NCBI GenBank assembly: GCA_044344255.1
Contig: JBIJDH010000003.1
Span: forward strand, 192,001 to 256,000
From: Myxococcota bacterium
GTDB lineage: Bacteria > Myxococcota_A > UBA796 > UBA2385
Length of the DNA stretch: 64,000 bases
Direction of reading: 5' to 3'
Part shown: piece after piece, positions 43,382-59,025 of the stretch
Numbering within the stretch: position 1 is the first letter of the stretch
How the letters are laid out: every line of letters begins with the position of its first letter
Translations under genes and position numbers: made by a program
Notes under the pieces: generated by a model
Databases searched by the model: none
Seen by the model: the letters and a program-made list of their open reading frames with translations, nothing else
Told to the model about the DNA's origin: nothing

Positions 43382-45475
43382 TCAGAGATCGCGGACGAAC
43401 TCGTAGTACTTCCCGAAGTGCACCCGGCTGACCTGCTTGCCCATCTTGACGAGCTCGCGGGCGATGGCTTCGACGACGTGGCGCATGCACACCGGTTCGC
43501 GGCGCGTGGAGGCGATAATACAGGCGTTGATCGCCGCGTTGACGATGTTGCCGCCTGCAATGATGAACTGTTCGGCGATCTCGGCGAGCACGAGGTCGTC
43601 GCCGCGGGGCGCGCCGGGCGGGATCGCGCGACGCCAGAGCTCGGTGCGCTCTACGGCGGTGGGCATCGGGAATTCGATCACGGCGCCGAAGCGGCGGAGG
43701 AAGGCTTCGTCGATGTTCTCTTGGAGGTTGGTCGTGAGGATCGCGCAGCCTTCGAAGGTCTCCATCCGCTGGAGGAGGAAGCTCACCTCTTGGTTGGCAA
43801 AACGGTCCTGCGCCTGCTTGACGTCTCCGCGGGAGCCGAAGAGGGCGTCGGCCTCGTCGAACAGCACCACTGCTGTGCCGCCCTCGGCCGCGTCGAAGAT
43901 CTCGCGGAGGTTCTTCTCCGTCTCACCCACCCACCGGGAGACGACGGACGAGAGATCGACGCGGAAGAGGTCGAGGCCCAGCGTGCCGGCGATCACCTCC
44001 GCAGCCATCGTCTTTCCCGTGCCTGGGCCCCCGGAGAACAGCGCCTTGATGCCGTATCCGCGGGCGCGGACCTTGTTGGCACCCCAGCGATGGAAGACGG
44101 TCTCCTGCTCGGCGAGGAAGTCGATGATCTGCTGGAGCTGAGTGCGGATCTTGTCGCTGATGACCAGATCCTGCCACGTGTAGCGAGGGATGACGTGCAT
44201 CGCGAGTCCGCGGAACTCCGGCCGCGAGCACTCCCGCGCCGCGGTCCATAGCGACTCCTGGCTTGGCTCCTTGCCGCCGCACTCGGCCTCCGCCCGCTCC
44301 ATCACGCGGTCGATCGTGGTGCCGCCTACTGAATAGAAGCGCTCGGAGAGCTCGACCGCCGGATCAGTGCTCCAGCCGCGCTCCTCGAAGGCCTCGGTCC
44401 AGGCTCCGAGCCGCTCGGGCAGGTTCGTGCGGTGCACCTGGACGGTGACGCTTGGGCGCTCATTCCCGAGGAGGGAGCCGATCGCGCGACGGTCGGTGCC
44501 GCCGATCAAGACCGGGTAGGGGAGGGTGGCGAGGGCTCCACCGAGGTGGATGAGCTGGTTTCGGAGGGCGGGGTCCTCCTGTGCGCTCATCACGTTGACG
44601 ATGTAGGGCAGGGCCTGGCTGAGGCGCAGCTCTCGAACGAGATCCCAAGGTTGTTCGAGGTATTGTTGGCAGCGTTCAAGATCGACGCGGGCCAGGGGTG
44701 TCCCGGCGGAGCGGGCGATGGCCATCGCCGTGGCCTCCCGCGCACCCATGGTCGCGCCGATGATCGCGATGGTGACGGCCTTGTTGAGACCCCCTGCGAT
44801 TTCGGCGATGCGGAGCCGGGTGGGGCCCGGGATGAGGGTCTTCCGACTGGTGTCGAGGGGCGTGAAACCGACGCCGGCGGGCAGCTCGACCTCCTCCATC
44901 AGCCACTGCAAGAAGCGGCCGCTGGGGTGGATCCGCCGCGCGGTGTGGGTCTCGGAGCCCTCGGCGGGATCGAGCAGCAGCAGCCGGTTTCGGATCAGCG
45001 GAGCGCCGGACATCATGCGCGCCTGCAACCCGAGGCGCTCGGTGCGGTGCGTACGGAGGACGCGGGTGGCGAGGTCGACCGTCAGGAAGGGCTGATTCAA
45101 ATTGTCGTTGAGATAGGCGAAGATACGGCCGTAGCCGGCCGAGATCTCGGGGGCCATCGCGAGGAGCAGGAGGTCGGAGTCGTCGCCGTCGAGGGCGAAG
45201 GCGCGACGCAAGCGCGCAAAGCGACCATTGGGGTCGTCGCGCAGGGCGGCGCTGGCCACCACCGCGTTCTCGAGTCCGTCCGGGGTGTTCGGCGGCAGGT
45301 CGATCTCGCCGTGCGCCTGGAGCAGCGCGTCCACTTCGTCATCGGTGATGACGGAGCCCCAGAACTGCCCTTTGGCCCGCATGGCCGGCCGGGCGCGTTG
45401 GCGGCGAACCGCGCGAAGCAGGAGCAGATCCGTCCGTCGGAGCCGGCGCGCCAGCTCCTCATACACCGTTGCCAA
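43382..45475 (-). CDS. CIS-associated AAA+ ATPase (Afp15/Pvc15-like)
   Basis: YLND...LTVDL N-domain; GGPGTGKT, DLSSVVSRWVGETEKNL, FDEADALFG, DEAFLRRF; first AAA module degenerate. Confidence 0.9.
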   Translation of the reverse strand: MATVYEELARRLRRTDLLLLRAVRRQRARPAMRAKGQFWGSVITDDEVDALLQAHGEIDLPPNTPDGLENAVVASAALRDDPNGRFARLRRAFALDGDDSDLLLLAMAPEISAGYGRIFAYLNDNLNQPFLTVDLATRVLRTHRTERLGLQARMMSGAPLIRNRLLLLDPAEGSETHTARRIHPSGRFLQWLMEEVELPAGVGFTPLDTSRKTLIPGPTRLRIAEIAGGLNKAVTIAIIGATMGAREATAMAIARSAGTPLARVDLERCQQYLEQPWDLVRELRLSQALPYIVNVMSAQEDPALRNQLIHLGGALATLPYPVLIGGTDRRAIGSLLGNERPSVTVQVHRTNLPERLGAWTEAFEERGWSTDPAVELSERFYSVGGTTIDRVMERAEAECGGKEPSQESLWTAARECSRPEFRGLAMHVIPRYTWQDLVISDKIRTQLQQIIDFLAEQETVFHRWGANKVRARGYGIKALFSGGPGTGKTMAAEVIAGTLGLDLFRVDLSSVVSRWVGETEKNLREIFDAAEGGTAVVLFDEADALFGSRGDVKQAQDRFANQEVSFLLQRMETFEGCAILTTNLQENIDEAFLRRFGAVIEFPMPTAVERTELWRRAIPPGAPRGDDLVLAEIAEQFIIAGGNIVNAAINACIIASTRREPVCMRHVVEAIARELVKMGKQVSRVHFGKYYEFVRDL

Positions 45476-45493
45476 GGGGACGCTCCGAATGTC

Positions 45494-46201
45494 TTAGACG
45501 ATCGTGCCTTTCTTGTCGGCGTGCCGGTCCAGCTGCGATTGAGAGTGATCGTCCATCGAGCCGAGCACACGCCGAGCGAGGTCGTCCACCACGTCGAGGT
45601 GGCTGTAACCTTGGGCGATCATCGCTCGGTAGCCGCGGACCGGATCGCTCTTCGACGCGATGGTCTCCGGCTTTCCGGCCGCGCCGCCGGCCGCGCCGCC
45701 CACGCTGCTGCCGCCCTTCTCGGAGGAATTGTGCGGGTCGCCGTGGCCGGCGCCTGCATGGGGCTGGTAGCCGCCTTCGTAACCGCCCTCCATCCGGTGG
45801 AAGACCATGCGCTCCACCGCCCGCGCCGCGACCTCTTCAGCGTCTCGGAAATTTTCCCCGCCTCCACCGCCTCCGCCGTCGCCGTGCTGGGCGTGGAAGG
45901 CCTCGTGGGCGTACAGCGCCTGATCTTCAGGGTTGGAAGGATTGAAGTCGTCGGCGACGATGATCTGCCGATCGAGGGTCATCGCGCGAGCGCCGACCGA
46001 CTTCAGGGCGCGCTGCGCGAGCTCACCCCGGTAGACCGAGCCGCCACCGGGCATCGACTGCCGTTGGAGGGCGCCCGACTCCAGCCGGCTCGCCACCCGA
46101 CCGACCGTGGAGGAGCCGACCACGCTCCGACCGTCACCCGCCCCTTCTCGGTCTCTCGCGACCGATCTCGCGGCCGCCTGCCCACCTGAACGTCCAGCCA
46201 T
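45494..46201 (-). CDS. DUF4157 (eCIS core domain) protein
   Basis: GARAMTLDRQI...ALYAHEAFHAQH...E..A; adjacent to the CIS ATPase. Confidence 0.8.
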   Translation of the reverse strand: MAGRSGGQAAARSVARDREGAGDGRSVVGSSTVGRVASRLESGALQRQSMPGGGSVYRGELAQRALKSVGARAMTLDRQIIVADDFNPSNPEDQALYAHEAFHAQHGDGGGGGGGENFRDAEEVAARAVERMVFHRMEGGYEGGYQPHAGAGHGDPHNSSEKGGSSVGGAAGGAAGKPETIASKSDPVRGYRAMIAQGYSHLDVVDDLARRVLGSMDDHSQSQLDRHADKKGTIV

Positions 46202-46344
46202 GGGGAACCCCCGCCCGTTCTCCGCAGCCTATCGCATCCATCCGGGGAATTGAAGGCAGAACACTTCGTGTGGGCGGCCGAACCCCATCCGCTGCTCGGT
46301 CGTCAACGGCCGAGACCGGGCGTGGCGCTGATTGCGGCCGAATT

Positions 46345-47523
46345 TCAGGCTTCTCCCGGTAGACATCGCCGGGACACGATCTCGGACACCACCTCGACCG
46401 CCCGAGTGAGCGCCGAGGCCTCGATGTACTCGTCCGGTCGATGCGCGACGTCGATGCTCCCCGGCCCGAAGATGATGGGCTCCATTCCCAAGGCGGCGAG
46501 GTTGCTGCCGTCGGTGGCGAAGGGGGCGCCCGTGGGGGCAGGATCGGAGGCGAGGTCAGCGATGAGGCTGATCAGCTCGGCCTTCTCGGAGGTTAGGAGC
46601 GAGGGGGTGGACTGGAGGGGCTCGAGGATCACTCGGCCTCCGTCCGCCCGGGCCGCCGCGTCCAGCTCAGCGATCCCCGGCAGGAGGTGAGAGAGGAAGC
46701 GGTCGATCGCCTGGCCGGGGAGGGGGCGCACACCCACGGTGATGACGCAGTGCTCAGGGACGATGTTGACAGCGGACCCCCCTTGGATGAGCCCGGCGTT
46801 CACCACGGTCCAGGGCGTCGGGAGCTCGGTCTCGAAGGCGCGGTCCACCGAGAGGTCTGCCTCGACGCAGTCAAGGAGCTCCAACACACGCCGGGCGAGC
46901 TTGATCGCGCTCAGCCCTAAGGCTGGCCGACTGCTGTGCGCGGGGCGCCCCTGGCACCGGATGCGGAACGTCGAGTGGCCTGGGTGCAAGCGGCAGATAC
47001 GAAAGGAAGTGGGCTCCCCGATCAGCGCGGCCCGCGGCAAGGGGCGTCGACCGTCGGCCCGTAGTCGCTCGACGAGCAAGCGGGAGCCGTGGCAGCCGAT
47101 CTCCTCGTCGTGGGTCCAGATCAGCACGAGCTCCCGCTCGAGCCGCCAGAGGGGCAGGCCGTGCAGGGCCTCGTCCACCGCGGCGATGAAGCCCTTCATG
47201 TCGCAGGCGCCGCGCCCGTACAGGCGACCATCTCGCTCGGTGAGGCGGAAGGGATCGGCGCTCCAGGCCTGACCCTCCACCGGGACCACGTCCATGTGGC
47301 CAGAGAGCACGAGCCCATCCGTCCCCTCGGGCCCGATCGCGGCGACGATGTTGCACTTTCCGGCGCTGCTCTCGAAGCGCTCGACCCGGAATCCGAGGCC
47401 CTCGGCGCGCTCCGCGAGGAAGGCGGCGAGCTCGGTCACCGGCTGGTCGCTGACCGTCGGCCAGGCGACGAGGCGCTCCAGGGTGCGACGGACCTCAGCT
47501 CCTTCGTTTCTTCTTCTTGTCAT
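46345..47523 (-). CDS. argE: Acetylornithine deacetylase (M20 family)
   Basis: LSGHMDVVP, GRGACDMKG, DEEIG, GEPT, AHSS, GPGSIDVAHRPDEY. Confidence 0.88.
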   Translation of the reverse strand: MTRRRNEGAEVRRTLERLVAWPTVSDQPVTELAAFLAERAEGLGFRVERFESSAGKCNIVAAIGPEGTDGLVLSGHMDVVPVEGQAWSADPFRLTERDGRLYGRGACDMKGFIAAVDEALHGLPLWRLERELVLIWTHDEEIGCHGSRLLVERLRADGRRPLPRAALIGEPTSFRICRLHPGHSTFRIRCQGRPAHSSRPALGLSAIKLARRVLELLDCVEADLSVDRAFETELPTPWTVVNAGLIQGGSAVNIVPEHCVITVGVRPLPGQAIDRFLSHLLPGIAELDAAARADGGRVILEPLQSTPSLLTSEKAELISLIADLASDPAPTGAPFATDGSNLAALGMEPIIFGPGSIDVAHRPDEYIEASALTRAVEVVSEIVSRRCLPGEA

Positions 47524-48244
47524 CGGCCTTGTCCTTGTCCGTCGCAGCCTTGGCTTCGCCCTCCTGTTCTTCTCCCTCTTCTTCGGTCTCCCACCAAGGA
47601 CGCTTACGCTGCCGATCGAGGGCGTCTGCCTCCATCGTGCTGGTCACGTTGAGGATGTCCATCGCGACGCTGAGCCCCTTGGGCAGGCTTACCCGCGCGG
47701 AGACCGCGGAAGACTGCACATGGCCGAGCTCCGCGGGGCCGCCGGCCATCGACACCTCTTGTTCTCCGGCGTCGAAGTTCTGGCGAACCTGATCGGGGAC
47801 GCTCTGAAATGCGGCCCGCTCGGCCTCCATGGCCCGGTCGAGCAGGGCCGCGCCCTGGCCGAGGTTGCCGTTGGCGAGGGCCTCGCCGGCACGCTTGTAG
47901 GCCTTCGCGCTCTCGTGCCAGCGGGTCGGATCAGGGAGCCCAAAGCCCTTGTTTCCGCGGGCAACCTCCTTGTACCAGTCGCGCTCGTCCTTCATCTCGG
48001 CGAGCTCCCTTTGCTGGACGCCCTTGACCACGCTCAGACGCTGCAGGATGAACGCGAGCAGCGCGTCGCGCTTGCCGTTGGCGCCCTTGATTTGACCTTC
48101 AACTTCCTGATTTCCAGCCTTTCTCCCTATTTTTTCGGCCCTCATGGCCTCGGGATCGGCCATCGCAGCCTGCCGCGGCATCGCCCGGATGCTCTGGGCC
48201 TGCCGGTCTTGCACCAGGGGCGTCTTCTTGTGGTCGCGGCTCAT
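47495..48244 (-). CDS. Hypothetical helical protein with acidic/basic tail
   Basis: MSRDHKKT... 249 aa; overlaps the argE start; divergent from the CIS structural operon. Confidence 0.7.
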   Translation of the reverse strand: MSRDHKKTPLVQDRQAQSIRAMPRQAAMADPEAMRAEKIGRKAGNQEVEGQIKGANGKRDALLAFILQRLSVVKGVQQRELAEMKDERDWYKEVARGNKGFGLPDPTRWHESAKAYKRAGEALANGNLGQGAALLDRAMEAERAAFQSVPDQVRQNFDAGEQEVSMAGGPAELGHVQSSAVSARVSLPKGLSVAMDILNVTSTMEADALDRQRKRPWWETEEEGEEQEGEAKAATDKDKADDKKKKRRS

Positions 48245-48277
48245 GCACGAAATCCTAACACTCGATGGGCTTCGGCC

Positions 48278-48307
48278 TTGACCGGCCATGCGCGATTCGG
48301 GTAGCTT
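48278..48307 (+). promoter_or_regulatory. Putative sigma70-type promoter of the CIS structural operon
   Basis: TTGACC-18 nt-TAGCTT. Confidence 0.35.
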
Positions 48308-48352
48308 TGCCGCAGCCCGTTCCACGCCGCTGTCGTTGGAGTTCCCCTCCTG

Positions 48353-48802
48353 ATGAGAGATCCGCGAATCCGCCTCGAACGTCGGGTCACCGGAGAGCGA
48401 TCTCGGGACCTCCCGGAGATGGTCCTCCGGATGTTCGAGCGCGAGGCGGAGCGTGAAGGCAAGGTCCAGCTCCAGCCGCACCGCGAGGCGATGCGCTTCG
48501 ACGTGAGGAACATCCGTCGGCTCGTGGATCCCTCCCCGAACGCTCCGCAGATGATTCGCCTCATCCGGCACCCTTACGGGCTGATGCCCGGCGGGATGAA
48601 GAGGGCGGAGGGCTTTGGCCGCGTTCGGGTCGAGAAGAGAGCGCCTCTGCGCGCGGAGGACGCCTTCAAGGCTGCCCTCGCGGACCACGTGCTCCCCACC
48701 TGGCCGAGCCCGAGCGAGGCCCGGCCCCGCCGCGAAGCAAGGCCTCGGCTGTCTGGCCTCGATTGGTCCACCTGGGTCACCTCGGGCGAGGTGCTCGCAT
48801 GA
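48353..48802 (+). CDS. Hypothetical basic protein, first gene of the CIS operon
   Basis: 149-aa ORF whose stop overlaps the next ATG (ATGA). Confidence 0.55.
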   Translation: MRDPRIRLERRVTGERSRDLPEMVLRMFEREAEREGKVQLQPHREAMRFDVRNIRRLVDPSPNAPQMIRLIRHPYGLMPGGMKRAEGFGRVRVEKRAPLRAEDAFKAALADHVLPTWPSPSEARPRREARPRLSGLDWSTWVTSGEVLA

Positions 48803-51531: not shown

Positions 51532-51975
51532 ATGGCTACCGAAGAACTGTTCGGCTCCTACAACTTCCTCCTCGAGATCCAGGGTGTCATCAATGACAAC
51601 AAGGTGATCGTGGGCGGGTTCAAGAGCGTCTCCGGCATGGACTCCGAGACCGAGATCATCGAGTTCAAGCAGGGCAACGACATGGTCGTGCGCAAGAAGC
51701 CCGGCCGCACCACCTACGCCAACATCGTCCTCGAGCGCGGCTACACCGCCACCGACGATCTCTGGCAGTGGCGCAAGAACATCGAGGACGGCAAGATCGA
51801 CCGCCGCGCCGGCTCGATCATCATCCTCGACCAGGACGGCCAGACCGAAGTGGCCCGCTACAACTTCTACGAAGGGTGGCCCTGCAAGTGGTACGTCCCC
51901 GACATGGACGCCGACAGCAGCGCCATGGCGATTGAGAAGGTTGAGATCGCGGTCGAGAAGATCGAGAGGGCCTGA
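51532..51975 (+). CDS. Tail tube protein (T4 gp19 / Afp1-like)
   Basis: YNFLLEI, GFKSVSG, KKPGR...IVLERG, LWQW, GWPCKW, IEKVEI; strong RBS. Confidence 0.94.
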   Translation: MATEELFGSYNFLLEIQGVINDNKVIVGGFKSVSGMDSETEIIEFKQGNDMVVRKKPGRTTYANIVLERGYTATDDLWQWRKNIEDGKIDRRAGSIIILDQDGQTEVARYNFYEGWPCKWYVPDMDADSSAMAIEKVEIAVEKIERA

Positions 51976-52340
51976 TGGAGCTGAAGACCGAGTTCGAGTT
52001 CACGCTCCCGAGGGGCTACGTCGATAAGGACGGAGTCCTCCATCGGGAGGGTGTGATGCGCCTGGCGAACGCCAAGGACGAGATTGTCCCGCTGAACGAC
52101 ATGCGAGTGCAGCGCAACCGCGCCTACCTCATCATCGTTTTGCTCAGCAGGGTGATCGCTCGGCTCGGCACGCTCAAGGAGGTGAACACGGGGGTCATCG
52201 AGAACTTGTTCGCGAGCGACCTCCGGTTCCTGGAAGAGATGTACAACCGGATCAACGAGGACGAGGCGACCGTAGAGGTGACGTGCCCCGAATGCAGCGC
52301 GAAGTTCGATAAGGAGTTCGGCCGCTTGGGGGAATCGTAA
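51975..52340 (+). CDS. CIS tail assembly chaperone-like protein (short product)
   Basis: TEFEFTLPRGYVD.DG.LHREGVMRLA.AKDEI, LFASDL, C-terminal CPEC; TGATG overlap with the tube gene. Confidence 0.85.
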   Translation: MELKTEFEFTLPRGYVDKDGVLHREGVMRLANAKDEIVPLNDMRVQRNRAYLIIVLLSRVIARLGTLKEVNTGVIENLFASDLRFLEEMYNRINEDEATVEVTCPECSAKFDKEFGRLGES

Positions 52341-52374
52341 GCTACCCCTTGGAGAATGTCTTCAAGGAGGTAGC
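52311..52374 (+). promoter_or_regulatory. Programmed -1 ribosomal frameshift signal
   Basis: AAGGAG (52311-16), 11 nt, G GGG GAA (52328-34), 6-nt spacer, 15-bp hairpin with one bulge (52341-74). Confidence 0.8.
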
Positions 52375-52495
52375 GTTCATCGCCTACCACTTCCATTGGG
52401 ACCGAGAGACCATCCTCAACTTGACGCACAAAGAGCGTCACGCTTGGGTGAAGGAGATATCGGCCATCAACGAGAAGATCAACACGACCCGATGA
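52331..52495 (+). CDS. DUF6760-like reading frame in the -1 frame (not in the ORF track); likely the C-terminal extension of the chaperone
   Basis: GIVSYPLENVFKEVAFIAYHFHWDRETILNLTHKERHAWVKEISAINEKINTTR; no ATG/GTG start ahead of the conserved part. Confidence 0.8.
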   Translation, partial: GIVSYPLENVFKEVAFIAYHFHWDRETILNLTHKERHAWVKEISAINEKINTTR

Positions 52496-52502
52496 TTCGT
52501 CG

Positions 52503-52542
52503 GCGGCCCCACCCACCCGGGTGGGGTCGCTTTCCCATTTTT
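52503..52542 (+). terminator. Intrinsic terminator-like hairpin inside the CIS operon
   Basis: GCGGCCCCACCC-ACCC-GGGTGGGGTCGC followed by TTTCCCATTTTT. Confidence 0.7.
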
Positions 52543-52570
52543 GAGAGCTACCTTTTCCCCATGGGTCCCC

Positions 52571-53770
52571 ATGCGACCGGGAATCATCGTACAGCACGCG
52601 CGCCTGCCGGATCGTAAGAGCGAGCTGGTTCGAGGCGACGTGGCGGGGATCATCGGGTTCATCCCTCGTCGTCGCTGGCCTGAGGGTGCCACCGCGGGGG
52701 ACTTCATCGAGCTCGTGCTCCGCCGGGAGGCGGATCTCTGGGCGCACCCCGATCGCGAGCTCTTCGACGCCGCTGCCCGACGTGCTGTGCGCTCCTTCTT
52801 CACGAACGGCGGCGACACTGTGCACCTCTTCGGAGTCTGCCTCGCCACCGACGATGATCTGCGCAGCCCCTCGGGCGTCCTCGGGGTGCTCGCGCCGCTC
52901 TACGATCGTCTGCGCTCAGAGGACGAGATCGGCCTCCTGCTCGTCCCAGCGGCGGCCTACATGCGCTGTGAGGTCCTCCGCGACGGCTCGGTGCGCTGCG
53001 ACGCGGAGGCCCTCTACGATGAGCTCCTGGCGCACTGCCGCGAGATGAACAACCGCTTCCTCATCATGGACGCCCCCCGCGGCCTGCATGGAGAGGCTCT
53101 GCTTCGGTGGGTCCGGCACTTTCGAAGTCGCGAGCCCGCCAGCCGCAGCTATGGGGCGATCTATTACCCTTGGCTCTGCCAGGGCGACGAGGTCTTCCCT
53201 CCCGGCGGGGTGATTGCGGGCTCCTTCGCCGCCGGCGAGCTGGAGCGGCGCCCCTTCGGCGTGGGTTGGCCACCAGCGAATCAGCCGCTACGCGGAGCGA
53301 CGCACCCGGAGATCGACCTCGACTGGGAGGAGGCCGGCGCCCTGGCCGAAGAGGCCATCAACCCGATCGTCGTCCAGCCCGGCCGAGGCCTCCTGGCCTT
53401 CGGCGCGCGCACGCTCTCCACGGATCCGACGTGGAGATATGTAAATTCTCGGCGAATCATCAATATGATCACCGAGCAGCTCCGGCGGGACAGCGAGTGG
53501 GCCGTCTTCGAGACCAACAACCCACATCTTTGGGATGTCCTGGAGCGGGACGTCTTGTTTCGATTGGGTGAATTCGCGACCGCGGGGCTCCTCACCGGGC
53601 GTCGGGCCGGAGAGGATTACTCCGTGAAGTGCAACGCGGAGACCAACCTCTCCACACTTCGCGACGCCGGGCAGGTCAACGTGCAAATCCGCATGCGCCC
53701 GGTCGGAACGGTCGAGCATATCGTGGTAGACTTGCGCATCGGCGCAGAACAGGCCGCGGGAGGTGCGTGA
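52571..53770 (+). CDS. Contractile tail sheath protein 2 (divergent)
   Basis: RPGI, FFTNGG, YYPWL, PPGG, PPAN, FGARTL, YVNSRR, VFETN. Confidence 0.88.
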   Translation: MRPGIIVQHARLPDRKSELVRGDVAGIIGFIPRRRWPEGATAGDFIELVLRREADLWAHPDRELFDAAARRAVRSFFTNGGDTVHLFGVCLATDDDLRSPSGVLGVLAPLYDRLRSEDEIGLLLVPAAAYMRCEVLRDGSVRCDAEALYDELLAHCREMNNRFLIMDAPRGLHGEALLRWVRHFRSREPASRSYGAIYYPWLCQGDEVFPPGGVIAGSFAAGELERRPFGVGWPPANQPLRGATHPEIDLDWEEAGALAEEAINPIVVQPGRGLLAFGARTLSTDPTWRYVNSRRIINMITEQLRRDSEWAVFETNNPHLWDVLERDVLFRLGEFATAGLLTGRRAGEDYSVKCNAETNLSTLRDAGQVNVQIRMRPVGTVEHIVVDLRIGAEQAAGGA

Positions 53771-54462
53771 TGGCAGAGTGGCGTGGACGGGGCAAGGGTC
53801 GTGTGCCAGGCCAGCCCAGCGTGCCGGCCGAGGGCGGCGCGGGTGCTGGGGGTGGCCGTGAAGGCTCGCAGCCGACGGTCGCTTCCTCGGGCTCCTGGAC
53901 GGGGCGAGGCAAGGGTCGGGAGGCCGCGCAGCCCTCGATGGGTGACGGCGGTATCTCTGCTGCCCCTGACAAGCGAAGCTGGAAGATGAAGGGCAGCGCG
54001 CCGAGCGCCACCTCTCGCAGCGCCACCTCCTCCATCGCCGATCCGGAGGGCAACTTTGTCTTCGCCCTTGAGCTGAACGGCTCAGAGGTGGCCCATTTCC
54101 TCGAGTGTTCCGGGCTGAAGACCACCACCGAGGTCTTCGAGCTGCAGGAGGGGGGCATGAACTACGCCGTCCACAAGCTTCCGGGGCAGTCGAAGTGGGA
54201 GAACATCCAGCTTCGGTACGGCGTGAGCCAGAGCACCACGCTCCTCGGGTGGCGGGACCAGATCCTGCAGGACTCCTTCACCGCCGGCAGCCGCTTGAAT
54301 GGCGCGATCGTGGTGAAGAACAACCAGATGCAGGTGGTCCGGCGCTATAATTTCGTGGATGCTTGGCCGGTTTCCTGGGAGGGTCCATCCTTCCAGGCCA
54401 GCGGCGCCGAGCTCGCGATCGAGAGCGTCGAGCTGGCCCACCACGGCATCTATGTGAGCTAA
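53770..54462 (+). CDS. Second tail tube protein (Afp5-like) with N-terminal low-complexity extension
   Basis: DPEGNFVF, FLECSGL, EGG.N...KLPG..KW.NI.LRYG, AWPVSWEGP, AIESVELAH. Confidence 0.88.
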   Translation: MAEWRGRGKGRVPGQPSVPAEGGAGAGGGREGSQPTVASSGSWTGRGKGREAAQPSMGDGGISAAPDKRSWKMKGSAPSATSRSATSSIADPEGNFVFALELNGSEVAHFLECSGLKTTTEVFELQEGGMNYAVHKLPGQSKWENIQLRYGVSQSTTLLGWRDQILQDSFTAGSRLNGAIVVKNNQMQVVRRYNFVDAWPVSWEGPSFQASGAELAIESVELAHHGIYVS

Positions 54463-54495: not shown

Positions 54496-57400
54496 ATGGA
54501 AGGGACAGAGCGAAAGGTTCCCGGTGAAGACATCGCCAGTCGGCTGTCCAGCCGTTGGCAGCGTCGCCCCCGCATGGGGATGGCTCCGGCCTTCTATGCC
54601 CGCTTCGGACTTGAAGATCCCTGGCTGGCGACCGGTCCGGTCGGGGGCGAAGGTCGTGACCTTGACCTCGTCTTCCTCTCCGCCGCGCCCTATTACCAGC
54701 ACATGATGCGGCTCGCCGCGGCGCGTCGTCGGCGTGAGCTGCGGATGTCACGGTTCCTGGCAGCCCACGGCGACCATGCGGTCACCGCCACTCGCCGAGC
54801 TTGGCCCGCGGCGGTCTCTACCGTCGTCGGCGGAGCCGTCTCGATGATGTCGGCCGCCGACATGGTCCTGCCCCCGGCGCCGATCGCCCCGGCGCTGGCG
54901 GAGGAGGCCGTCGCGGCCCAGCCGGTGTCCCGCCCCCGCTGGCATCGGCGCAATCATCCCACCCGTGGCGTCGCCAGCCCCTGGCTCAGCCGAGAACATG
55001 CGCCAGCCGCGGTCTTCACGACACCGGATGGCCATCGCCTTCATTCCGAACCCTCGTGGGAGATGGAGCGCCAGAGACAGCCTGAGATCCAGACGGTCGA
55101 TACCAAGGCAGCCCGGTCTCCCGCGAGCCGACCGCTCGATCGGCTGAACGCGGTCGCGCATGCACCCGCGCAGCGCTCGGAGCCGAAGGTGAAGGCCGCG
55201 GTCGAGGCCCTGAGCAGCCTCGGCGGCGGACGGCGGATCGAAGAGGCCTTGCGAATCGTCGAGCGCGCGGGTGTGGTCGAGCTGCGCGAGGTTGTCCGGG
55301 TCATCACTCGCCACATCGGCGTGGCCTCGCGCCTCGTCGAGGTCGAGCTGGAGAGCGTGCTCCCCGACGCGGGGCTCCGTCCGAGCGCGATCGCACGAGG
55401 TCGGACCGCCAGCGTCGATGCGGGCCCTCGCGGGCTGCGTCCCGCGCTCCGGAGTTCACCGCTCTACGCGCCCGCCATGACCGCTGTGGTCCCTCCCACC
55501 GAGGCTCCGGTGGAGGTCGCGGAGGCCGTAGAGACTTCCTCGTCGCAGCGTCGCAGTGCCGCCGCTCGCGCGGCCTCTATGGGCCAGCGTGCTCGCGCCG
55601 AGCGTCACGCCGCTGGGCCGGCTGTCCCCACACGTCGGCCGCGATCTTCGGCCGCGGCCGCCTTTACCCGGGGCGCGCGTCCATCTTCCTCGCATCTCAG
55701 CGCCTCCCCGGTGCGCCGTTCCCGCAGCGCGTCTGGCCCGCAGCTCAGCGCTTCGCCCGTGATCTCCAGCGGTGCGACGACCCCTCGGGCCGCCGTTCAG
55801 GCCCGCGCTGATGACTCCGGCGGAGATGGCGAACGCCGCCCGTCGGTCAACGGAGACCGACGGGCAAAATCGGGGAACGAGACGGAGGAACCGACTACGG
55901 CGGCGCGCTCTCTCCGTGACGCGGCCCGTGCACTCCCGTCCATCTTTGACGTAGAGTCCTTCGGCGACACCTCGCCGGCTGTTGGACGAGCCGGGGCATC
56001 TGCCGCGAGCGCCCGCCCTTCCGGTCCGTCGGAGGTCCAGCACAGTGGTTCGGGCGCCCGCCTGACTAGCGGCGCGGTCCCCGAAGCGCGTGACCGGTTG
56101 AGCTGGGGGGACGCCGGTGAGCCCGTGGCCTTCCAGTCGGAGCGACGTCTGGGGATGTCCGCCCGCGCCGCCGCTCGCCTGGAACAAGCGGAGGGGGGCG
56201 TCTGGACGATCGATCGGGAGATTGAGCCGCAGGCCCCCTTTGTTCGCCGTTTGGAGCGGAGTCTGGCGACGGCCCCGGCGGGAGTCACTCGCGCCCGCCA
56301 CGGGGCGATCGTCCCCGAACAGTCTCTCTTGGTCCCGGCCGCTCCATTGGCCGAGGCGCAGGCGGGTGAAGTCTCGCCTTCTACCGTCGCTGTGGCCCGT
56401 CCCTCGGCCAGTCGGCCGCCCGGGAGCGAGCGCCGCAGCGCCGCGGCGCGCGCGCCCCGAAGCCCGGGTGCGGCCCACGCTGCCGATCGCGGCGCGTTGG
56501 GGGAAGCTATCGAAGGTTCGGTCCTCCCCCGGCTTCGCGCCGCCCCTTCGAAGAGCTCGGTGACCGCGCCGGTGAGCGAGCTGCGTGCATCTGAGCGCGC
56601 TTCGTCCCGCGCCGAGCTGGACGTCTCGGAGGAGCGCTCGATCGTCCCGCGGGTCGCCTCTCGGCCGACGCGTAAGGTCGCTCCGGCGGTGGTGCTGGCC
56701 GAGGCCCTGGTGGCTGAAATCGGTGAAGGGGGCGTCACGGATGCCCAGTCCGCCCCGCGGCTTGACCGCCGCTCGGTATCGGCTGCCCGCGTCGCCGTCG
56801 GAACGTCGGGTCCTGCGGACGCGGCCCGTTCGGTCGGATCCGAGTCTTCGTTGCGTGACGGGCGGGGCTCGCCGGTCGAGCGGATCGCCGCGGCCCTGCC
56901 GGAGGTCCGGGGTGTGGAGCGCTTGGTGAGCGGTGAGCCCCCAGCGGCCGCCGCCCGTCCGACAGGCATCGCAGGGGTCGAGGCCCGCTCCCGAGGCTTG
57001 GCCTCCATCCTCGATGTCTCCGAGCACGATCGTGTGCAAGATCGATTCGAGAGGCAGGAGGTCGCGGTCGAGCGAGACCGGTCCGCCGCTGCCCGGATCG
57101 GCGCTCACACCGTCGGCGCGCGGGCGGCGATCACGGCGCCCGCCGCGGTGCCCCTCAGCCCGCCGGCGGCCGCGGCGCCACCGGCAGAGGCTGCGCCCTC
57201 GGCGACGCCCGCCTCTCGTCGTCCCGCACATCGGTCCGGAGCGGCTGTTGGTCGGCGACGGTCGGCCGTTCGGGAGGCGCGGGCTCGCCTCTCGCTAGGT
57301 GTGGAGCCTCAGCTCCGCTCCGTCGTGCCCCACCCCACAGCGGCTCGCGCGTCAGCCCCGGTGGGCGCTCGCCTCGCCGTGGGCAGCCCTCTTGTCGCAT

Positions 57401-59025
57401 CCCGTTCGGCCGCGTCGCCTCCGGCCATGATGGCGCCGGCGACCCCCGCGCGGGCGAGCCGTGGTGCTCGGTCCTTGCGGCTCCCGGCCGCCCTCCTCGC
57501 CGGTGCGCGTGGCTCGACCGCCCCCATCGTGAGCTGGCTCGCCCGCAACACCGCCGAGCCGGTCACCGCCGAGGTCCGAGACGCGATCGTCGAGATGGTC
57601 AGCCGTCGCGGTCGACCGGGGCCCGCCTCTTACGCTCGCCTGGTCGGAGGGACGCGGGTGGAGACCATCTTCGCCGGTCCCGACGCGACGCCCGCCGAGG
57701 TGCTACCCGCGTCGGCGGCGCCGGTGAAGCCGATCATTCGTGTCCGTCCCGCACGCGTTCCGCCGAAGCGGGCCGCCCGTCGTCCTCGGGTCACTGCCGC
57801 GCCCGGCCGGCCGCTGGAGTGGGCGGGCATCCGCAGCTTGCAAGGCTTGGTCGAGTCCGGGAGCCTCAGCTCGATCCGTCTCCCCGGCGGGAGCACTATC
57901 GAGCTCATCCGCCCAGACGCCGACGCCGCCGATACAGACTCCGCTGCCCTGGCCGCCCGCGGCGTCCGCACCAGTCGGCGCCGAGCGCCAGAGGGTGTCA
58001 ACCTCCGCGCCGAGGCTACAGGCTCGGCAACCGCGACCACCTCTTCCGAGCTCGAAGGAGCCGGGGAAGAGGTCGGCGCTCCGCTCGGCAGCCGTGTGGG
58101 CCGGCGCCGCCGAGCCGCCCGCCGCGCCGCTTCCCGCCATGTGTCTCGGAGCGCGGACGGGCGCTACGTTCCCGCGGCCGGGGTCCAGGCCCGTCGAACG
58201 GTGGCCACTGCTTCGGAGCTCATCCTCCCGTCTGCGGGTTTGGATGTCGGCGTCGACCCCGCCGCCCGTACCGCCGAGACTGCGCGTTGGGCCGGCGCGG
58301 GTGCGGGAGGTGCTGAGCTTGGCCGCACCCTCAACGCCGTCGAGCGGGGCGAGGTCGAGCAGGATCTCCCGAGCTGGGCGCAACGAGCCTCCGGTGAGCC
58401 GCTGGTCCGTGGCACGGGCGGTGACATCGTGGCCGCGCTGGCCCGTGCGAGCGATCCGGAGGAGGTCGTTCGGGTCATCATCGAGCGCGGAAGCGCCCTC
58501 GGCGCCTTGGCCTCCACGCTCCCCCGGCCGCTCCTCCAGGTCATCGAGCAGATCCGCTCCGAGTCCCAGGCCGAACGCCTGAGCGAGGCAGAGGGTGTGG
58601 AAGGTGGCTCCGTCGCGGGCTCCACGCTCCGGCCTTCCTCCCCGCGCGCGGCCTCCTCGCGCGGGCCGGCCCGATCGAGCGCGCGGGTCATGCGCGGCTT
58701 CACGAACTTGAGCGTCGGCGCCCGCCCGGTGGAGGGCGTGGGCCAGAACAAGATCACCAAGCTCGCCGCGAAGCTGCAGCAGCTCATCTTGCTCGCCGAG
58801 AACCAGCAGCGAGACACGGCGCGCCGTCAGGTCCGAATGGCCGAGGACAACAGCCAGGCTCGCGCCGAGGGGCAGGGCGCCGTCAGCGGCCCCGGCAACA
58901 CCAACAATCGACAGGTGGACCTCGAGGCGCTGGCGCACGAGGTGACCGAGACCGTGTTGAGAGAGATCGAACTGCGCCGCGAGCGGCGCCCGGAGGACCC
59001 CGATGAGCGCAGCGTCTGGTGGTAG
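54496..59025 (+). CDS. 1509-aa Ala/Arg/Ser/Pro-rich CIS-associated protein
   Basis: Single long ORF filling the tube2-LysM gap; helical C-terminus VDLEALAHEV...ELRRERR. Confidence 0.7.
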   Translation: MEGTERKVPGEDIASRLSSRWQRRPRMGMAPAFYARFGLEDPWLATGPVGGEGRDLDLVFLSAAPYYQHMMRLAAARRRRELRMSRFLAAHGDHAVTATRRAWPAAVSTVVGGAVSMMSAADMVLPPAPIAPALAEEAVAAQPVSRPRWHRRNHPTRGVASPWLSREHAPAAVFTTPDGHRLHSEPSWEMERQRQPEIQTVDTKAARSPASRPLDRLNAVAHAPAQRSEPKVKAAVEALSSLGGGRRIEEALRIVERAGVVELREVVRVITRHIGVASRLVEVELESVLPDAGLRPSAIARGRTASVDAGPRGLRPALRSSPLYAPAMTAVVPPTEAPVEVAEAVETSSSQRRSAAARAASMGQRARAERHAAGPAVPTRRPRSSAAAAFTRGARPSSSHLSASPVRRSRSASGPQLSASPVISSGATTPRAAVQARADDSGGDGERRPSVNGDRRAKSGNETEEPTTAARSLRDAARALPSIFDVESFGDTSPAVGRAGASAASARPSGPSEVQHSGSGARLTSGAVPEARDRLSWGDAGEPVAFQSERRLGMSARAAARLEQAEGGVWTIDREIEPQAPFVRRLERSLATAPAGVTRARHGAIVPEQSLLVPAAPLAEAQAGEVSPSTVAVARPSASRPPGSERRSAAARAPRSPGAAHAADRGALGEAIEGSVLPRLRAAPSKSSVTAPVSELRASERASSRAELDVSEERSIVPRVASRPTRKVAPAVVLAEALVAEIGEGGVTDAQSAPRLDRRSVSAARVAVGTSGPADAARSVGSESSLRDGRGSPVERIAAALPEVRGVERLVSGEPPAAAARPTGIAGVEARSRGLASILDVSEHDRVQDRFERQEVAVERDRSAAARIGAHTVGARAAITAPAAVPLSPPAAAAPPAEAAPSATPASRRPAHRSGAAVGRRRSAVREARARLSLGVEPQLRSVVPHPTAARASAPVGARLAVGSPLVASRSAASPPAMMAPATPARASRGARSLRLPAALLAGARGSTAPIVSWLARNTAEPVTAEVRDAIVEMVSRRGRPGPASYARLVGGTRVETIFAGPDATPAEVLPASAAPVKPIIRVRPARVPPKRAARRPRVTAAPGRPLEWAGIRSLQGLVESGSLSSIRLPGGSTIELIRPDADAADTDSAALAARGVRTSRRRAPEGVNLRAEATGSATATTSSELEGAGEEVGAPLGSRVGRRRRAARRAASRHVSRSADGRYVPAAGVQARRTVATASELILPSAGLDVGVDPAARTAETARWAGAGAGGAELGRTLNAVERGEVEQDLPSWAQRASGEPLVRGTGGDIVAALARASDPEEVVRVIIERGSALGALASTLPRPLLQVIEQIRSESQAERLSEAEGVEGGSVAGSTLRPSSPRAASSRGPARSSARVMRGFTNLSVGARPVEGVGQNKITKLAAKLQQLILLAENQQRDTARRQVRMAEDNSQARAEGQGAVSGPGNTNNRQVDLEALAHEVTETVLREIELRRERRPEDPDERSVWW

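Follow-up and report, generated by a model that had tools for sequence, protein, structure and literature searches.

The locus considered here lies in a 64,000-nucleotide (nt) stretch of a Myxococcota bacterium genome (assembly GCA_044344255.1, contig JBIJDH010000003.1, positions 192,001 to 256,000 of the forward strand), which we call the window, and its subject is a pair of overlapping reading frames in a contractile injection system (CIS), a tail-assembly-chaperone-like open reading frame (ORF) of 121 amino acids (aa) and a DUF6760 domain that is very probably reached by a programmed -1 frameshift. By Pfam assignment the CIS genes follow each other in the order Pvc16 cap, sheath, gp19 tube, chaperone/DUF6760 pair, sheath-like, tube, a 1509-aa ORF, LysM tube initiator, GPD hub and gp25; the pair is thus separated from the 1509-aa ORF by two genes, one sheath-like and one for a tube, and a tube gene is directly 5' of the chaperone ORF in the window, in the annotated plasmid loci and in phage BCD7. 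The 121-aa ORF ends in TTG (52326) GGG GAA TCG TAA (52338-52340), and the frame one base back is closed by TAA at 52310-52312 and thereafter open until TGA at 52493-52495. Read from GGA 52331, the -1 peptide matches Pfam DUF6760 (PF20546) with an E-value of 3.9e-17 and 62.5 bits (gathering cut-off 27) over profile positions 5-52 of 89. Its Tyr-Pro (YP) codons occupy 52343-52348; ATG, GTG and TTG are absent from the upstream TAA up to these codons, the first of the three being TTG 52349. A preliminary description of this DNA, made from its letters alone, had already reported the end of the ORF, the 54-codon -1 frame with its upstream TAA, the missing ATG or GTG and the TTG buried in a hairpin, all of which proved exact to the base, and the places it gave for AAGGAG 11 nt upstream, GGGGGAA at 52328-52334 and a stem 6 nt downstream were likewise borne out (Table 1).

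Table 1. Features at the chaperone/DUF6760 junction; positions count from the first letter of the window.
Feature	Position	Strand	Basis and remarks
Tube gene, T4 gp19-like, CIS	51532..51975	+	Pfam PF06841, E 1.3e-35; stop shares one base with the chaperone ATG
0-frame ORF, 121 aa, tail-assembly-chaperone-like short product	51975..52340	+	Sequence, model, Foldseek, PHROG
-1 frame TAA upstream of the slip site	52310..52312	+	Sequence; no start codon before the conserved DUF6760 residues
Shine-Dalgarno (SD)-like AAGGAG, candidate stimulator	52311..52316	+	Sequence; 11 nt 5' of the G run
Putative slip site G GGG GAA (0-frame codons ttG GGG GAA)	52328..52334	+	Sequence and conservation
0-frame stop TAA	52338..52340	+	Place and identity differ among relatives; -1 peptide constant
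Putative stimulatory hairpin	52341..52374	+	15 base pairs (bp), bulged A 52368, loop ATG 52356-58; 6 nt 3' of the heptamer
-1 extension, DUF6760 domain (GIVSYPLENVFKEVAFIAYHFHW...)	52331..52495	+	54 codons and TGA; Pfam; three-helix model
TTG, sole canonical start candidate	52349..52351	+	Inside the stem, 3' of the conserved YP; TTG in 67/95 relatives, CTT/CTG/CTC in 28/95

The same arrangement is found throughout the close relatives of this locus. PF20546 is present in 40 of 41 genomes of the same order, and all 30 loci returned from such genomes carry a homologue of the 121-aa protein (75-92% identical) with DUF6760 after it in the frame one base back; a further 80 loci of the window-type family, again with DUF6760 in the -1 frame, came from a scan of species genomes. 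The resulting set of 111 loci yielded 96 distinct 270-nt junctions, 95 of them full-length. In all 96 the sequence TGGGGGAA is invariant and at the same position, the 0-frame stop following the GAA one codon later in 72, immediately in 22 and five codons later in two. GGGGGAA occurs seven times in the window for 11.8 expected, and since its count alone is unremarkable the significance of the motif rests on position and conservation; its frequency, not being above chance, was dropped as an argument for frameshifting. Across the 95 full-length junctions the variability at the three codon positions is 2.34/2.11/9.95 for the 105 nt 5' of the G run read in the 0 frame, and 6.97/3.62/15.17 for the 158 nt 3' of it read in the -1 frame. 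Third-position variation therefore moves from the 0 to the -1 frame at the G run, which is to say that the frame under selection changes there. The first codon of the -1 frame is Ile (ATC 71, ATA 22, ATT 2) and never ATG, the Val codon is GTA in 65 junctions, GTG in 19, GTC in six and GTT in four, with a single GCA, and the Ser codon is AGC in 95 out of 95. These codons lie 5' of any candidate start and change only synonymously, and must therefore be translated. The junction is kept in 152 of the 152 bacterial loci examined. Among the records consulted, several metagenome-assembled genomes titled Klebsiella or Enterobacterales (L055, L061, L064, L117, L125 and others) contain loci 74-87% identical to the Myxococcota-type junction of the window; these titles look like mislabelled bins.

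A start codon for the -1 frame was sought in the same 96 junctions. GTG stands two codons 5' of the Tyr in 19 of them, and the codon after YP is TTG in 68 and CTT, CTG or CTC in the remainder. Candidates farther upstream, 17-20 codons back, fall in a stretch that lacks conserved -1 translation. Between the previous in-frame stop and the Tyr there is no ATG, GTG or TTG in 18 junctions, that of the window included, and seven have no start even if the TTG after YP is counted. No start position is conserved among close relatives.

Immediately downstream of the putative slip site the RNA is predicted to fold. The stem of the window (52341-55 with 52359-74) consists of 15 bp with a single bulged A, closed by a loop of 3 nt, and has an RNA minimum free energy (MFE) of -24.2 kcal/mol and a z-score of -3.24, and only one of 200 shuffled sequences folds as well. 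On an alignment of 89 sequences 93.9% of the cells are paired, and three stem pairs are changed on both sides (10 cells), a number reached by none of 500 shuffles. Folded one by one, the close relatives give a median MFE of -22.6 kcal/mol; measured against synonymous recodings with unchanged protein and local codon usage, z has a median of -3.37 and falls below -2 in 75 of 83. AGC, TAC, GAG and the rare Val codon GTA show no synonymous variation inside the stem, and just outside it all four letters occur at the third place of the following codon. On the 5' side, the six bases at 17 to 12 nt ahead of the G run read AAGGAG in 76, AGGGAG in 10, CGGGAG in eight and CGCGAG in one of the 95 close relatives, so that GGAG is kept in 94 of 95 through changes between Lys and Arg. 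No fixed counterpart of this element was recognized across phyla when the distant loci were compared; from the sequences, an upstream SD-like stimulator is plausible but unproven.

More distant loci were reached by a tblastn search against plasmids, which returned 40 records; the 22 loci examined comprise 20 bacterial and two haloarchaeal ones. The bacterial set includes seven Streptomyces, Streptantibioticus, Kitasatospora, Embleya, Rhodococcus, four cyanobacteria, Ralstonia, Paraburkholderia, Burkholderia, Rhizobium, Paenibacillus and Treponema, i.e. Actinomycetota, Cyanobacteriota, alpha- and beta-Pseudomonadota, Bacillota and Spirochaetota. DUF6760 is in the -1 frame relative to a long upstream ORF in all 20 bacterial loci, the junction reading NNG GGG GAR in 18 and NNG GGG GGA in two, with the 0-frame stop 0-9 codons on and the -1 frame encoding GG-x-x-x-YP or a variant of it. 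In 11 of the 20 the first nine -1 codons contain no ATG, GTG or TTG. The Prokaryotic Genome Annotation Pipeline (PGAP) of the public records presents the pair as two genes, starting the second at CTG in S. cadmiisoli and Kitasatospora but, in Rhodococcus, 27 nt inside the domain, and calling no gene in Brasilonema; this erratic annotation is in keeping with the lack of start codons in many loci. In most plasmid loci a hairpin begins 4-8 nt 3' of the heptamer, with z at or below -2 against synonymous recodings in 13 of 20. The base of the stem is GGCUACC/GGUAGCC in cyanobacteria and has a U-G wobble in Ralstonia and Rhodococcus, GCCGCC/GGCGGC replaces GCUACC/GGUAGC in Treponema, and Streptomyces uses a shifted register, GUACGC/GCGUAC. 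On comparative grounds these cross-phylum differences are compensatory changes, even altering the encoded residues. A metagenome locus (L157) has a CTGGGGGAATAG cassette with the GGCUACC/GGUAGCC stem and a slip site of the same type.

The identity of the 121-aa protein was approached by sequence and by structure. It matches no Pfam family at E ≤ 0.01 save DUF7836 at chance level, neither PF10109 nor PF23746 being found; its PHROG resemblance, to PHROG 508 'tail assembly chaperone' (E 6.8e-4), is below threshold, as are those of its relatives to Phage_TAC_7 (PF10109, 23.5 bits for a cut-off of 25) and Gp41_Mu (PF23746, E 1.5e-3). A 119-aa relative (P0069, 89% identical) is named 'phage tail assembly protein' by its source, and the sole phage match in tblastn is gp090 of Bacillus phage BCD7, located between the tube genes and the tape measure. 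The structural model, with a predicted local distance difference test (pLDDT) score of 82.5 and confident over residues 1-97, matches by Foldseek in BFVD the same BCD7 gp090 (E 1.8e-7), Mu FS-gp41 (E 3.2e-3, prob 1.00) and T4-like 'baseplate hub assembly' proteins, the top PDB row being the HK97 tail assembly chaperone 2ob9 at an E-value of only 0.1. Several independent lines agree here and point to a phage tail-assembly-chaperone fold. DUF6760 is modelled as three helices (pLDDT 91.9), for which Foldseek retrieved nothing from the PDB below E 3. Sequence searches of solved structures with both proteins and both profiles gave chance-level rows only, and DUF6760, as single sequence or as profile, met no solved chain of a CIS component at E ≤ 10. 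It had no tblastn match in 50,697 phage genomes, and the extension is therefore not linked to any phage T domain. The C-terminal segment of the chaperone contains a single CxxC (window 52284-52295, residues 104-107) with weak zinc-ribbon matches and low model confidence; Streptomyces homologues are annotated as 'zinc-ribbon domain-containing protein', and a paralogous family described below is devoid of CxxC.

The two parts also occur naturally fused. When 1.84 billion cluster representatives were searched with a profile, 448 DUF6760 clusters came up at E ≤ 0.001, and among 150 cluster representatives the called N-termini range from truncated to extended. Clean fusions of the chaperone body to DUF6760 in one frame are P0186 (159 aa) and P0211 (150 aa), the latter with three cluster members and three more clusters that are 76-79% identical, all 150-151 aa long and with PF20546. 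The corresponding DNA, from a low-GC metagenomic lineage, is a single ORF in both loci retrieved (L154, 1506-1955; L155, 4001-4453), and L155 is flanked by a sheath gene, three tube genes, gp25 and baseplate J. Their sibling L156 (3998-4450) requires a -1 shift within GAG GGG GGA ATT TTT TTT C, which may be a shift site or a homopolymer assembly error. Four long representatives (P0163, P0171, P0246 and P0272) look like wrong-frame upstream extensions by the gene caller and were not counted as fusions. A weak search for longer forms in a set of 5.8 billion proteins gave two rows, P0123, a single-sequence in-frame fusion, and a read-through.

Taken together, it is very likely that a programmed -1 ribosomal frameshift yields a chaperone-DUF6760 fusion beside the short protein, as the preliminary description proposed for this CIS chaperone: the conserved junction and frame switch, the missing conserved start, the compensatory changes in the hairpin, the fused forms and the chaperone fold, all emerging from sequence comparison, converge on it. 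If some ribosomes slip by -1 at GGGGGAA, the neighbouring DUF6760 'gene' looks like an extension and not like a gene of its own. Most ribosomes would read on to the TAA at 52338 and release the 121-aa protein, and a fraction would slip one base back on G GGG GAA (52328-52334), most simply by re-pairing of the P-site tRNA-Gly from GGG to the overlapping GGG, with help from the hairpin 6 nt on and, perhaps, from the SD-like AAGGAG that precedes the run by 11 nt. The shifted ribosomes would then translate the -1 frame over 52331-52492 into a product that should measure 173 aa under either slip model, 52 residues more than the short form, made up of the chaperone body, the junction ...GRLG(G or E)IVSYPLENVFK... 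and the three-helix DUF6760 domain. Gly at the variable place of the junction would go with P-site slippage and Glu with tandem slippage. We infer the ribosomal nature of the slippage, its efficiency and the partner of the extension. If the pair works like lambda gpG/gpGT, P2 gpE/E+E' and Mu gp41/FS-gp41, the body common to both forms would attach to the length-determining protein and the extension would recruit another tail component, the ratio of the two forms being set by the efficiency of the shift; the fixed product ratio and the lambda-like function are extrapolations from phages. The broader statement that DUF6760 is the frameshift-encoded 'T domain' of cellular CISs instead of a gene family, and that in Myxococcota, Actinomycetota, Cyanobacteriota, Pseudomonadota, Bacillota and Spirochaetota alike a -1 slip at G GGG GAR is the only way to reach it, is one that we regard as probable, with less assurance than the frameshift itself.

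The most serious competitor is an independent small DUF6760 gene, whose translation would begin at TTG 52349, at some non-canonical codon that directly follows the G run and has GGGGGA as its SD sequence, or by termination-reinitiation at the chaperone stop. Such a gene is what PGAP annotates, and the G run indeed pairs well with the anti-SD (median duplex -8.4 kcal/mol). In E. coli reporters the G_GG.G tetramer was judged not shifty, and what signal it gave was attributed to an SD-like effect and weak initiation at an AUA in the -1 frame, 7 nt downstream (PMC4066793). Ten of the 21 loci tabulated, and most of the paralogous family described below, have a GTG or ATG usable as start no more than three codons from the G run, and the 4-nt overlap of start and stop seen in haloarchaea, ATGA, likewise produces a -1 relation. 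We nevertheless consider an independent gene unlikely, since its start is not conserved (by the tallies above neither the GTG nor the TTG is general, and some close relatives and over half of the bacterial plasmid loci have none), the codons 5' of any candidate are conserved as amino acids with an Ile that is never ATG, PGAP had to resort to CTG, to a truncated start or to no call at all with N-termini that scatter, and in-frame fusions exist. The frame could also be changed by the RNA polymerase, transcriptional slippage adding a G within the run of five; the G run is a homopolymer, the protein made would not differ, and the comparative frame data fit both. However, the run has only five G (six to seven in some relatives), and the known bacterial sites of transcriptional slippage need longer runs. 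A conserved hairpin at 4-6 nt spacing and the suppression of synonymous sites are, moreover, the hallmark of ribosomal -1 frameshifting, and we hold slippage of the polymerase to be very improbable. Least credible of all is a broken gene or a homopolymer assembly error by which an ancestral fused gene was split through a one-base indel: fused forms do occur in some lineages, and L156 differs from its fused siblings within G and T runs, but the same split at the same base recurs in 111 close and 20 distant loci from independent assemblies, finished plasmids included, with purifying selection in both frames.

Several observations weigh against the frameshift or restrict its reach. The preliminary description had spoken of classical stimulators at textbook spacing; the heptamer G GGG GAA is not a canonical X_XXY_YYZ site, as the A-site GAA would have to re-pair with GGA at the cost of a middle-base mismatch, and the SD-like element is kept only in close relatives and not across phyla. 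By its sequence the site fits instead the GGGGGAA 'fivetwo' class. As to the covarying stem that had been predicted, the doubly changed pairs and the cross-phylum changes agree with it, but the seven basal pairs are invariant among close relatives and hence give no covariation signal, and in a fixed register four apical pairs are unpaired in 24, 19, 12 and 20 of the 89 sequences, some of which (e.g. L003) keep the stem shifted by one base. RNAalifold moreover returned for the 89-sequence alignment a consensus other than the proposed hairpin, with pairing of the G run to the CCCC(U) of the YP codons (window 52328-52349, alignment columns 13-17 with 30-34), both strands being invariant; this alternative fold may hide the slip site. 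The proposed hairpin was retained over it on account of the per-sequence folds, the synonymous-recoding control and the compensatory changes across phyla. Lastly, all the support for the frameshift is comparative.

Exceptions come from a second family and from archaea. The window's own genome has a second, paralogous chaperone/DUF6760 pair (L031, G000:C83:39200-42500), and in the family to which it belongs (L031-L049, from the same genomes) DUF6760 is in the -1 frame in 19 of 19 loci, the chaperone ORF ending in CCG/CCC GGG GGG TGA or TCG GGG TGA. The TGA stop usually forms a GTG that is a possible start, although L038 has no start at all, and no significant hairpin was detected in this family, z being below -2 in one of 18; it may shift on the longer G run beside the stop or reinitiate there. 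In the two haloarchaeal loci (L136:1455-1480 and L143:1455-1480) an ATG overlaps the upstream stop and the YP motif is lacking, and both have, 12 nt ahead of that stop, a G GGA AAY heptamer in frame. Given the ATG of the haloarchaeal genes and the stop-overlapping GTG of many paralogues, not every DUF6760 need be accessible by frameshift only.

Some features of the surrounding DNA deserve mention. In the window, 52541-54462 is taken up by another sheath-like gene, shorter than the first (409-aa ORF), and by another gp19-like tube gene, which departs from the order tube, chaperone, tape measure found in phages. The 1509-aa ORF (54496-59025), placed between this tube gene and the LysM tube initiator, has no match in Pfam, PHROG or NCBIfam and may be a length-determining (tape-measure-like) protein or a cargo; directly after the pair, several Streptomyces loci have a long hypothetical ORF. 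A GC-rich palindrome (CCCCACCC ACCC GGGTGGGG) follows the DUF6760 stop (52496-52548), with a terminator-like hairpin and T-rich tail at 52529-52548, such sites being no commoner than chance in our scan. Upstream of the cap gene, five successive plus-strand ORFs of 585, 146, 177, 336 and 149 aa (44432-48802) are without match in Pfam, PHROGs or NCBIfam.

The proposed frameshift would give DUF6760 a place in tail assembly, as the second arm of the CIS tail assembly chaperone, and would correct the annotation of the pair with its CTG starts, truncated starts and missing gene calls. Cloning the two 'genes' separately or recoding their junction would, in engineered injection systems, lose an assembly factor together with a regulatory ratio. 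It would also mean that the chaperone frameshift of phages survived the domestication of phage tails, at least six phyla having kept the nucleotides of the slip site, and would offer a natural test bed for single-tRNA slippage on a G run. Should DUF6760 be a frameshift-encoded T domain, this would be among the most widely conserved recoding sites in cellular bacterial genes (outside phages and insertion sequences), and hundreds of clusters of 'DUF6760 proteins' in the databases would have artefactual N-termini.

As regards what is already recorded, the term 'DUF6760' is absent from the literature searched and no description of a frameshift in a CIS chaperone was found there, most subscription journals lying outside that search. 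A supplement to PMC10020575 was considered as proteomic evidence and set aside: it lists Sco4251, a possible homologue, in purified particles, with no entry for Sco4250 and no peptide detail. The spike plug of CISs, known as Cis6, Pvc6, Afp6 or Alg6 (PMC8894136, PMC12546770), resembles DUF6760 in being small, helical and encoded in CIS loci. We rejected this identity, there being no sequence or fold match and the DUF6760 gene following the tube gene instead of lying between cis5 and cis7; for a Halogeometricum locus with a DUF6760 gene the authors themselves report no cis6 homologue.

Closer parallels are offered by known frameshifting systems. In E. coli dnaX a -1 frameshift takes place at the slippery heptamer A AAA AAG between an upstream SD and a 3' hairpin and truncates the product. 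The three-part layout and the spacings of our junction (SD-like element 11 nt upstream, hairpin 6 nt downstream) are similar, but here the shift would extend the product and the SD-like element is not conserved across phyla. P2 gpE/E+E' and Mu gp41/FS-gp41 (PF10109, PF23746) share with the pair a contractile tail and, in the case of Mu FS-gp41, a similar fold, although the sequence matches stay below the curated cut-offs and the window protein has its CxxC segment. Among about a thousand SEA-PHAGES actinobacteriophage chaperone frameshifts, GGGGGAA is the sole 'fivetwo' slip motif according to the PRFect paper (PMC10885494), identical to ours in sequence and direction; those pairs are phage genes annotated as joined features, whereas the CIS pair is cellular, present in at least six phyla and annotated as two genes. 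A further counterpart is lambda, whose tail assembly chaperones gpG and gpGT are made by a programmed -1 frameshift (review PMC5009743). In both, a small gene right after the tube gene has a -1 extension with no start of its own and a slip site a few codons before the stop, which gives, or in our locus would give, a short and a long product with a common N-terminal body. Lambda differs by a true X_XXY_YYZ site, G GGA AAG, and a non-contractile tail, and our locus by DUF6760 as extension, by a cellular injection system as host and by the sheath-like and second tube genes that precede the candidate length-determining ORF. The device and the slip sequence are therefore already known from phages, and it is the setting, cellular CISs of at least six phyla, and the extension domain that differ; judged by its sequence, the pair is very probably the G/GT device of phages, kept in cellular CISs and given an extension peculiar to them.

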